Shown: positions 9,391 through 9,530 of the stretch, one piece after another
How the letters are laid out: every line of letters starts with the position of its first letter
How positions within the stretch are numbered: position 1 is the first letter of the stretch
Assembly (NCBI GenBank): GCA_965213685.1
Contig: CBDBZY010000041.1
Span: 256,001-320,000, forward strand
Source: a bacterium
Lineage (GTDB): Bacteria; UBA8248
Direction of reading: 5' to 3'
Length of the DNA: 64,000 bases
Made by a program: the position numbers and the translations under genes
Notes under the pieces: generated by a model
The model's input: only the letters and a program-made list of their open reading frames with translations
Databases searched by the model: none
What the model was told of the DNA's origin: nothing

Positions 9391-9530
9391 CTCCCGGTCA
9401 CCCCAGCAGAGCTGATGAGGCCTGGTATTGGCCGAAACGTGTCCTGCGCATTGGGTGACTGTTTAAGATCTAGGCCTAAGGGCCGTTCGTGGCCTAGGGA
9501 GTTGTGGTTCTCGATTTACTCATGTACATG
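9391..9530 (+). mobile_element. Dispersed repeat C with type I hammerhead ribozyme (9397-9459)
   Basis: CTGATGA-GGCC(tggtatt)GGCC-GAAAC-GT-GTC core enclosed by gtcaccc/gggtgac; ends tcgatttactcatgtacatg. Confidence 0.85.

Follow-up and report, generated by a model that had tools for sequence, protein, structure and literature searches.

A stretch of 64,000 nt of contig CBDBZY010000041.1 (C41:256001-320000, here the window, numbered from its first letter) in the 71-contig assembly GCA_965213685.1, filed as a bacterium (UBA8248), was found to carry a dispersed repeat encoding a type I hammerhead ribozyme. The locus raises the question of what kind of element this repeat is and how it came to be spread through its host DNA. 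The copies are likely to be solo insertions, decaying and for the most part 5'-truncated, of a non-coding and non-autonomous retroposon that carries the hammerhead, in an animal (probably sponge) genome.

The family was delimited by a blastn search of window positions 9301-9700 against the window and then against the whole assembly. It comprises 12 pieces in the window, among which all 11 repeat places of the initial annotation of this DNA were recovered, and 93 high-scoring segment pairs at 90 loci assembly-wide. All of these are on contigs of 42-54% GC, and blastn of the assembly found no family locus on the bacterial contigs of 61-69% GC. At the density seen across the assembly, 1.18 loci would be expected in the window, where 12 were found (Poisson P = 5e-9). 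The family consensus encodes a full type I hammerhead with the CUGAUGA box, the GAAA box and a G/A-U-C cleavage triplet. In the alignments stem I is made up of a 6-bp proximal and a 7-bp distal helix with a 2/3-nt internal loop between them, and stem II of 4 bp (GGCC/GGCC) under a 7-nt loop; GAAA is followed by four bases, ancestrally CGCG, then by U and C, and helix III is a 6-nt palindrome, ancestrally ACGCGU. A covariance model, designated R1, was built in this work from 8 family copies and run over the window without filters. It returned four full plus strand domains, all of which belong to its training set, so that their matches hold by construction, and one broken domain on the minus strand. 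The copies in the window, all from the blastn search, are as follows.

9391-9525, plus strand: family copy truncated at its 5' side just upstream of distal stem I; hammerhead domain 9395-9463, predicted cut after 9443, R1 94.9 bits (copy in model); core complete, proximal stem I paired at 4/6 positions and reading GCAGAG.
33416-33524, minus strand: 5'-truncated family copy, R1 only 10.7 bits (E 2.3) at 33481-33544; starts inside loop II after the CATGTACATG junction, has no CUGAUGA box, and has GAAC in place of GAAA.
38431-38564, plus strand: best-preserved copy, R1 98.6 bits (copy in model); hammerhead domain 38435-38503, predicted cut after 38483; every core base present, stem I with 6/6 pairs (GUGCAG/CUGCAC), helix III AUGCAU; similarity to other copies extends about 54-71 nt further upstream.
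42513-42663, minus strand: family copy with a full but broken domain (blastn match 42513-42649); domain 42596-42663, R1 43 bits, E 5e-9 (copy outside model); G12 has become A (AAAA in place of GAAA), helix III contains a C.A mismatch, and stem II is weakened.
47209-47268, plus strand: fragment of the 3' module alone, with no hammerhead, preceded by a long (ACATGT)n run.
48709-48744, plus strand: 36-nt fragment, R1 27 bits over 48711-48774 (copy outside model), holding the 5' strand of stem I, CUGAUGA and the start of stem II; a partial local duplication of the 48806 copy.
48806-48927, plus strand: family copy, R1 91.2 bits (copy in model); hammerhead domain 48834-48902, predicted cut after 48882; core complete, stem I with 5/6 pairs, G.U pairs in stem II, 3' module replaced.
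52649-52770, plus strand: 5'-truncated family copy that starts in loop II after CATGTACATGTACATG, has no CUGAUGA box, and has AAAA in place of GAAA.
53320-53599, plus strand: longest copy of the window (blastn 53433-53599, homology from C41:309320), R1 94.7 bits (copy in model); extends about 145 nt upstream of its hammerhead domain 53469-53537, predicted cut after 53517, core complete, stem I with 5/6 pairs.
63304-63577, minus strand: one split copy (blastn halves 63304-63395 and 63543-63577), its hammerhead domain interrupted by some 150 nt of other sequence; R1 trace of 16 bits, E 0.09, at 63357-63434.
63903-64000, minus strand: copy running past the window end to C41:320029 (blastn match 63903-63998); 5' part degenerate, CUGAUGA box not recognisable.

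Both the family consensus and four window copies contain the type I core, and the core pattern had one match in the window against none in 100 shuffles. Of the 52 copies that cover the domain, 43 have an intact first box, 34 an intact GAAA and 51 an intact cleavage site. Most of the motif as initially annotated (CUGAUGA, GGCC/GGCC stem II, GAAA, G/A-U-C, extended stem I) is borne out by the family alignments; the assembly-wide consensus recovers the complete core together with stems I and II, the annotated cuts after 9443 and 38483 are in register with the covariance model, and the paired state ascribed to a 38437 copy, with 6/6 pairs in GUGCAG/CUGCAC and an AUGCAU palindrome, was confirmed. 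Two details had to be corrected, namely the gcgcag stem I assigned to the 9391 copy, which reads GCAGAG, and the 2-bp stem III. Drawn as a monomer hairpin, helix III would be a 2-bp stem (A-U plus one pair) with a 2-nt loop, which is sterically impossible, and the 6-nt palindrome is the better description. As a 2-nt loop cannot close, helix III would form only between two copies via the palindrome, and cleavage is predicted to be dimer-dependent. In such a double hammerhead, the helix III joining the two copies would be pseudoknotted with respect to stem I. Minimum free energy (MFE) folds of the four full window domains contain stem I in all cases, and stem II in all except the 53469 domain. 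The helix III design has precedents in PMC4209133: hammerheads with a helix III of 1-2 bp and a small palindromic loop are inactive alone and active when two copies pair, and most minimal hammerheads occur as single dispersed motifs; solo 'monomer' copies of retrozymes are common as well (preprint 10.64898/2026.07.22.740005).

The Rfam library responds weakly to this architecture. Hammerhead_1, which the initial annotation had proposed for checking the motif, matches none of the 10 window pieces tested, even at E ≤ 10. The scan at this threshold covered 20 short loci, namely 16 family pieces, one copy of a second hammerhead family described below, one singleton and two Penelope-type motifs. 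Of the 16 family loci, the one at C56:57792-57836 alone exceeds the 34-bit cut-off of RF00163, with 37.5 bits, and this copy has two extra helix III bases and so fits the 4+4 helix of the model; core and helix layout of RF00163 are as in the family, whose typical copies are two helix III bases shorter and stay under the cut-off. Thus, the family falls below the Hammerhead_1 threshold because its helix III is shorter than that of the model, and not because its core is wrong. Hammerhead_HH9 (RF02275) aligns the extended stem I and its internal loop in four family copies and no other family pieces, with 14.5-21.4 bits (17.6 for the 38431 copy, the sole window piece among them) against a cut-off of 52. 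A scan of the whole window at E ≤ 10 is uninformative on hammerheads, the best 150 of 453 matches being swamped by microsatellite-driven miRNA matches. The singleton, at C18:428960-429029 (+), is a canonical-looking type I hammerhead with stems I, II and III of 6, 5 and 7 bp and a complete core; its MFE structure is the hammerhead fold (-21.6 kcal/mol), and it has neither an Rfam match at E ≤ 10 nor a second copy in the assembly.

The anatomy of the element was deduced from the alignments. The 3' end is fixed at ..GAUUUAUUCAUG, often followed by TACATG repeats, such that copies end in ..TTCATG(TACATG)n, while the 5' starts are graded. Three copies, one of them split by a 1.6-kb insertion, share a 5' start about 410 nt upstream of the domain, giving a full length of about 600-640 bp, and the hammerhead is positioned about 60-130 nt before the 3' end of the element. 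The three longest copies display no tRNA-like head (ARAGORN; Rfam at E ≤ 1, with one chance snoRNA row) and no meaningful open reading frame. Copies are solo: among the 90 loci, one pair alone forms a genuine two-unit tandem, and the remaining close pairs are split copies or involve a 36-nt fragment. The tandem, at C16:523205-524552 (L026:6406-7753), is a direct repeat with a period of about 700 bp, 93-98% identity and one hammerhead per unit; it lies about 2.2 kb from the contig end, and its unit is mostly non-family sequence. TACATG or ACATGT occurs within 18 nt of the 5' junction in 11/34 independent truncated copies against a background of 3.1% (P = 3e-9), and in 7/33 against 2.1% by a stricter 10-nt criterion. 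The fixed 3' end, the graded 5' starts and the TACATG-like sites together argue for a non-autonomous retroposon copied from its 3' end. As the copies are colinear and not permuted, it seems likely that their templates were uncleaved RNAs, and we infer retroposition by target-primed reverse transcription. The amplified, ribozyme-bearing retroelement of the initial annotation is thus sustained in the dispersal, the lack of coding capacity, the fixed 3' end, the variable 5' truncation and the type I hammerhead; its retrozyme/Penelope label is not, since the copies are solo and the Penelope-like loci of this assembly have a different hammerhead and do not share the tail.

A cycle compatible with this anatomy can be proposed. 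A few source copies would be transcribed, and a reverse transcriptase encoded elsewhere would recognise the shared 3' end (..GATTTNNTCATG plus TACATG repeats) and prime at TACATG-like chromosomal sites, with frequent early stops giving the 5' truncations. The templates would be uncleaved RNAs, and cleavage after G/A-U-C would need two copies paired through the palindrome, in a multimeric transcript or in trans. Once inserted, copies decay neutrally, chiefly at methylated CpGs, and about two thirds of the ribozyme domains are now broken.

Decay of the copies is evident in the alignments. Fifty-two of the 90 loci span the domain, 18 of them in a state that a lenient test scores as intact; after eight assembly duplicates were dropped, 14/44 independent domains were intact and 30/44 failed. 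The commonest lethal change is GAAA to AAAA (13/52 domain-covering copies), which is the CA outcome of the CpG that C11.1, the final C of stem II, makes with G12. In the de-duplicated set this dinucleotide reads CG in 16 copies, TG (harmless) in 14 and CA (lethal) in 11, so that the harmless and the lethal outcomes of CpG decay are about equally frequent. In stem I two CpGs lie opposite one another, and their double decays are compensated in seven cases, double-wobble in two and double-mismatch in five. These counts are near the neutral 2:1:1, and the paired changes of the 38435 domain are as expected from chance CpG decay, a possibility rightly raised in the initial annotation as far as stem I is concerned. 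In helix III the double decays read UGCA 10, UGUG 3, CAUG 2 and CACA 2 (chi-square P = 0.015); the excess of UGCA, the paired and palindromic form, could stem from constraint in a source lineage or just mark a subfamily. Outside CpGs, divergence in 23 well-aligned, de-duplicated copies is 7/276 (2.5%) in the core versus 195/2530 (7.7%) elsewhere (Fisher P = 8e-4), although the copies are related and are treated as independent, so that this P value, like that for helix III, overstates the evidence, and finding copies by similarity may favour conserved copies; loop II is also little diverged (6/161). The core is therefore better conserved than its flanks, the comparison put forward in the initial annotation, and this pattern suggests that source copies were probably constrained and kept a working core while inserted copies decay neutrally.

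The 3' end proved to be common to other short elements. A second hammerhead family has another stem I, another stem II and an 8-nt helix III palindrome in a layout equal to that of the first family; its GAAA box is broken in all copies seen, and it scores 29.9 bits with Rfam Hammerhead_1. It was noted at C41:335812-335976 (-) (domain C41:335872-335916), C4:37842-37984 and C4:8874-8977, and also at C16:11228-11364, C16:45334-45470 and C16:67312-67448. The end of this second family, of one short repeat and of one tRNA-derived short interspersed nuclear element (SINE) is GAUUUNNUCAUGUA plus CATGTA repeats. Together with the first hammerhead family this makes four families, two of them with hammerheads, that terminate in GATTTNNTCATGTA and then (CATGTA)n; a fifth, likewise derived from a tRNA, stops at TCATGTA. 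Within each tail-sharing family similarity stops directly after the end motif, and the stretch common to the family 3' ends is just about 14 nt. In the window, what Rfam reports as tRNAs are the heads of SINEs from two or more tRNA-derived families; these end in ..UCAUGUA, often with CATGTA repeats, and so match the hammerhead family at the 3' end.

49990-50165, minus strand: tRNA-derived SINE, Rfam tRNA head; at its 3' end (..GATTTCATCATGTA) it matches the hammerhead family.
47260-47433, minus strand: Rfam tRNA head of a similar SINE starting at 47433.
23111-23230, plus strand: Rfam tRNA head of a similar SINE starting at 23111.
39400-39517, minus strand: Rfam tRNA head of a similar SINE starting at 39517.
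50253-50325, minus strand: tRNA-derived SINE head, Rfam tRNA.
10822-10893, plus strand: tRNA-derived SINE head, Rfam tRNA.

Candidate partner enzymes were sought on the low-GC contigs. Five GIY-YIG matches form four loci, two matches being head to head. Remnants of Penelope-like elements are seen at C18:32077-32830 (+) and at C41:164839-165960, the latter with the two head-to-head matches. At C18:32783 and at C41:165916, 0.2-0.6 kb past GIY-YIG matches, there is a minimal hammerhead that has a CUGAAGA box and lacks helix III, while the other two loci contain chance core strings only. None of the four loci has similarity to the hammerhead family or its tail; within 8 kb of the five matches no family sequence was found bar one unrelated fragment, and no GIY-YIG frame lies upstream of family copies on the same strand. 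As for reverse transcriptases, none is present on the same strand within 4 kb upstream of 76/77 tail matches, the exception being a copy nested in another repeat, and none of 21 long reverse-transcriptase frames has the tail microsatellite within 2.5 kb downstream. A tail-like motif lies within 4 kb downstream of 9/90 RVT matches versus upstream of one; on inspection these nine were other repeats or nested copies. Also discarded were one candidate long interspersed nuclear element (LINE) partner, which ends in a trinucleotide repeat instead, and a fragment of a reverse transcriptase, situated 1.6 kb before a family-3 tail, which proved to be a mosaic of repeats.

Several results weigh against the retroposon reading. 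Target-site duplications of at least 8 nt accompany 2/45 insertions versus 5.5% in a shuffled-pair control, and the roughly 4.9 Mb of low-GC DNA yielded no autonomous element that carries the shared tail. A mild excess of 5' ends lies within 9 nt of the cleavage site (7 versus 2.5 expected, P = 0.014 in a window chosen post hoc), which fits neither purely random truncation nor ends defined exactly by cleavage; the junctions scatter from about -7 to +5, which argues that these ends were not made by the ribozyme, and the polymerase may have paused at the folded domain. The density of (ACATGT)n runs, at 1219 per Mb in the window versus 286 per Mb assembly-wide, makes the window the richest of 69 bins, and family counts follow these runs weakly across bins (Spearman 0.26, P = 0.03), a correlation that is partly circular because each insertion carries its own tail. 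For the ribozyme itself, Rfam at gathering thresholds calls no hammerhead in the window, the paired changes of stem I give no covariation support, neutral CpG decay accounting for them, and the core comparison carries the dependence and ascertainment noted with it.

It was considered whether the family is a true metazoan retrozyme of the type without long terminal repeats (non-LTR), or a derivative of Penelope-like terminal repeats, with the window copies being dead monomers. Transcripts of tandem arrays would then be cut to unit length, circularised and copied by a Penelope-like reverse transcriptase. Like the family, metazoan non-LTR retrozymes are non-coding and non-autonomous with a type I hammerhead and a very short palindromic helix III (PMC7229834), a combination regarded as the hallmark of such elements (PMC7229834, PMC4209133) and in agreement with the background on which the initial annotation had drawn; they also coexist with Penelope-like elements, and solo monomers make up from 0 to 100% of a retrozyme family (preprint 10.64898/2026.07.22.740005). 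Penelope-like terminal repeats share with the family a hammerhead near the 3' end, single copies attributed to truncation and a dimer-dependent architecture (PMC4209133), to which are added microsatellite insertion bias and 5' truncation (PMC8557442; preprint 10.64898/2026.07.22.740005), and Penelope-like loci with GIY-YIG frames followed by minimal hammerheads coexist with the family in the assembly. However, retrozymes are tandem units of 170-400 nt (PMC7229834), whereas the family is dispersed, colinear and 5'-truncated with a full element of about 600 bp, and circle-derived cDNA would often be permuted. The two-unit tandem with a domain in each unit speaks for arrays, but it is the only one of 90 loci in any tandem and mostly of non-family sequence, though with about 4.9 Mb of host DNA at hand arrays could be missing. 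Moreover, the family has no reverse transcriptase or GIY-YIG frame, and the local Penelope-like loci differ from it in their CUGAAGA box, the missing helix III and another 3' region devoid of the TCATGTA tail; the microsatellite-type tail of the family is instead common to tRNA-derived SINEs. A retrozyme or Penelope-like origin is viewed as a possible but less likely alternative.

Alternatively, the element may be a SINE-like passenger of a stringent-type LINE that recognises the shared tail and also moves tRNA-derived SINEs, the hammerhead being a module of its body. SINEs of tRNA origin rely on LINEs, reverse transcriptases of LINE type are plentiful here (107 RVT_1 matches), and four families end in the same motif plus (CATGTA)n with a fifth ending in TCATGTA. 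Against this stand the short length of the shared stretch, the lack of a polymerase III-type head in the element and the fact that no LINE with the tail was found, as none of the 21 long frames and none of the nine RVT-linked motifs held up. A LINE passenger is likewise viewed as a possible but less likely alternative. The tail common to tRNA-derived SINEs points rather to a LINE partner, while the literature favours Penelope-like elements and leaves the mobilising enzyme of hammerhead elements open (PMC8557442, PMC7229834, preprint 10.64898/2026.07.22.740005). A more specific conjecture, that hammerhead elements and tRNA-derived SINEs are alternative bodies on one 3' end served by one reverse transcriptase, possibly of a LINE, is judged rather unlikely. 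If true, it would break the assumed exclusive link of animal hammerhead retroelements to Penelope-like elements, and would suggest that RNA-end processing is what the ribozyme module supplies to elements without a polymerase III head. Finally, the hammerhead-like motif might be inert, as a product of chance, a relic or a folded recognition element for the reverse transcriptase. Cleavage is deduced here from sequence, window copies are not called by Rfam, the minimal hammerheads found in Penelope-like elements are poor cutters in vitro (PMC4209133), and ribozyme mutants had no effect on the insertion of an Anolis Penelope-like element in vitro (PMC11167929). Yet the consensus contains all bases of the catalytic core, core and loop II are the least diverged parts, the second family has the same core and a palindromic helix III with different helices, and the window shuffles never produced the core pattern, all of which makes inertness improbable.

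The family belongs to a broad known kind, the hammerhead-bearing non-autonomous retroelements of animals, and not to any one named family. As the available DNA shows no tandem arrays of the retrozyme kind, and as Penelope-like frames and a SINE head are lacking, it is filed outside each of them. The type I hammerheads of newt satellite 2 and of the schistosome repeat Sm-alpha have a helix III of 2 bp and work in pairs, as double hammerheads; Sm-alpha is described as SINE-like and dispersed and is said to have polymerase III promoter boxes. Neither is related to the family in sequence; the newt repeats are tandem satellites, and, unlike what is said of Sm-alpha, the family shows no sign of a tRNA-like head. 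Ever since these newt and schistosome repeats, animals have been known to carry type I hammerheads scattered in short non-autonomous retroelements, now counted in the thousands per genome, and the existence of a further family is expected rather than surprising. The only lead from which something new might be learnt is the 3' end that the family has in common with tRNA-derived SINEs, which offers a testable handle on the enzyme that mobilises hammerhead elements.

The nature of the host was assessed from the assembly as a whole, which is mixed: beside the contigs of 61-69% GC there are 22 contigs at 33-54% GC summing to 4.9 Mb. The RVT_1 matches of the low-GC contigs, several within frames of 900-1340 codons, numerous intronless protein-kinase frames, tRNA-derived SINEs and very dense microsatellites identify these contigs as eukaryotic DNA. 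For a 797-codon kinase/NHL-type frame, Porifera is the commonest phylum in 5/10 of the Atlas clusters listed, a lead and not a proof that the host is probably a sponge. Several sequencing runs labelled as sponge or coral-reef metagenomes hold small shares of this DNA, which is no evidence of habitat, and none of the listed runs is on record as RNA. A literature search on hammerhead ribozymes with Amphimedon or Porifera found no sponge hammerhead retroelement, although supplementary species lists might include some; 'sponge', 'Porifera' and 'Amphimedon' are absent from the main text of PMC4209133, and 'sponge' and 'Porifera' from that of PMC7229834. More than half of this nominally bacterial assembly is animal DNA, most likely from a sponge host, which concerns any user of the bin. 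The bin is chimeric though reported as 94% complete and 3.7% contaminated, its bacterial contigs being those of 61-69% GC.

The initial annotation had further proposed that host selection breaks or removes sense hammerheads in introns, leaving the intact cores antisense to genes. One host gene is demonstrable in the window, and gene evidence for 38-64 kb was not found.

2-2341, minus strand: 780-codon frame running off the window start, a leucine-rich repeat (LRR)-containing rhodopsin-type receptor (LRR_8 E 6.7e-49, 7tm_1 E 6.5e-14).

In this frame the leucine-rich repeats are followed by a rhodopsin-family seven-transmembrane domain, as in LGR-like receptors, and 36601-36888 (minus strand) is a possible signal-peptide/LRR leader exon with no Pfam match. 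The four full domains do lie on the plus strand, as annotated, and one minus-strand gene is real, but the further minus-strand genes invoked could not be demonstrated. Three of the four full plus strand domains are intact against none of the single full minus-strand domain, counts that are tiny. The defects of the minus-strand copies are real as well, yet their causes are others: the 33416 and 63903 copies were 5'-truncated at insertion, one copy is split, and the G12-to-A change is a CpG transition shared by 13/52 copies. Moreover, 30/44 independent domains fail the intactness test assembly-wide, and a monomeric copy of such a hammerhead is not expected to cut a pre-mRNA. Retrozymes of Xenopus are depleted from introns and exons, in a text that gives no orientation analysis (preprint 10.64898/2026.07.22.740005). 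Selection by orientation is therefore unsupported rather than refuted, and as an explanation of the window it is considered highly improbable.

Minor observations concern the surroundings of the copies. In four runs, all of contigs with DNA-like cover, the summed word depth of the hammerhead bins within 47260-50420 was about 2,300-4,500 times that of neighbouring unique bins, a ratio that is not a copy number. A 35-nt degenerate pattern retrieved one public genome contig locus and one metagenome locus, which, being selected by the pattern, are uninformative on conservation. At C18:48389, 131724, 577753, 636738 and 796765 (-) a 5'-truncated hammerhead copy was captured in a larger repeat and amplified with it; the flanks of the five are identical, and reverse-transcriptase matches lie about 3 kb off on the other strand. 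Directly 3' of the 9391 copy, window positions 9523-9690 hold a different dispersed repeat, also present at 19879-20042 and 31462-31600, with 78-82% identity among the three places. Last, C41:303209-304927 (+) and C41:336846-338356 (-), about 32 kb apart, form an inverted segmental duplication in which the window pieces at 47209, 48709 and 48806 reappear in mirror order with near-identical flanks.

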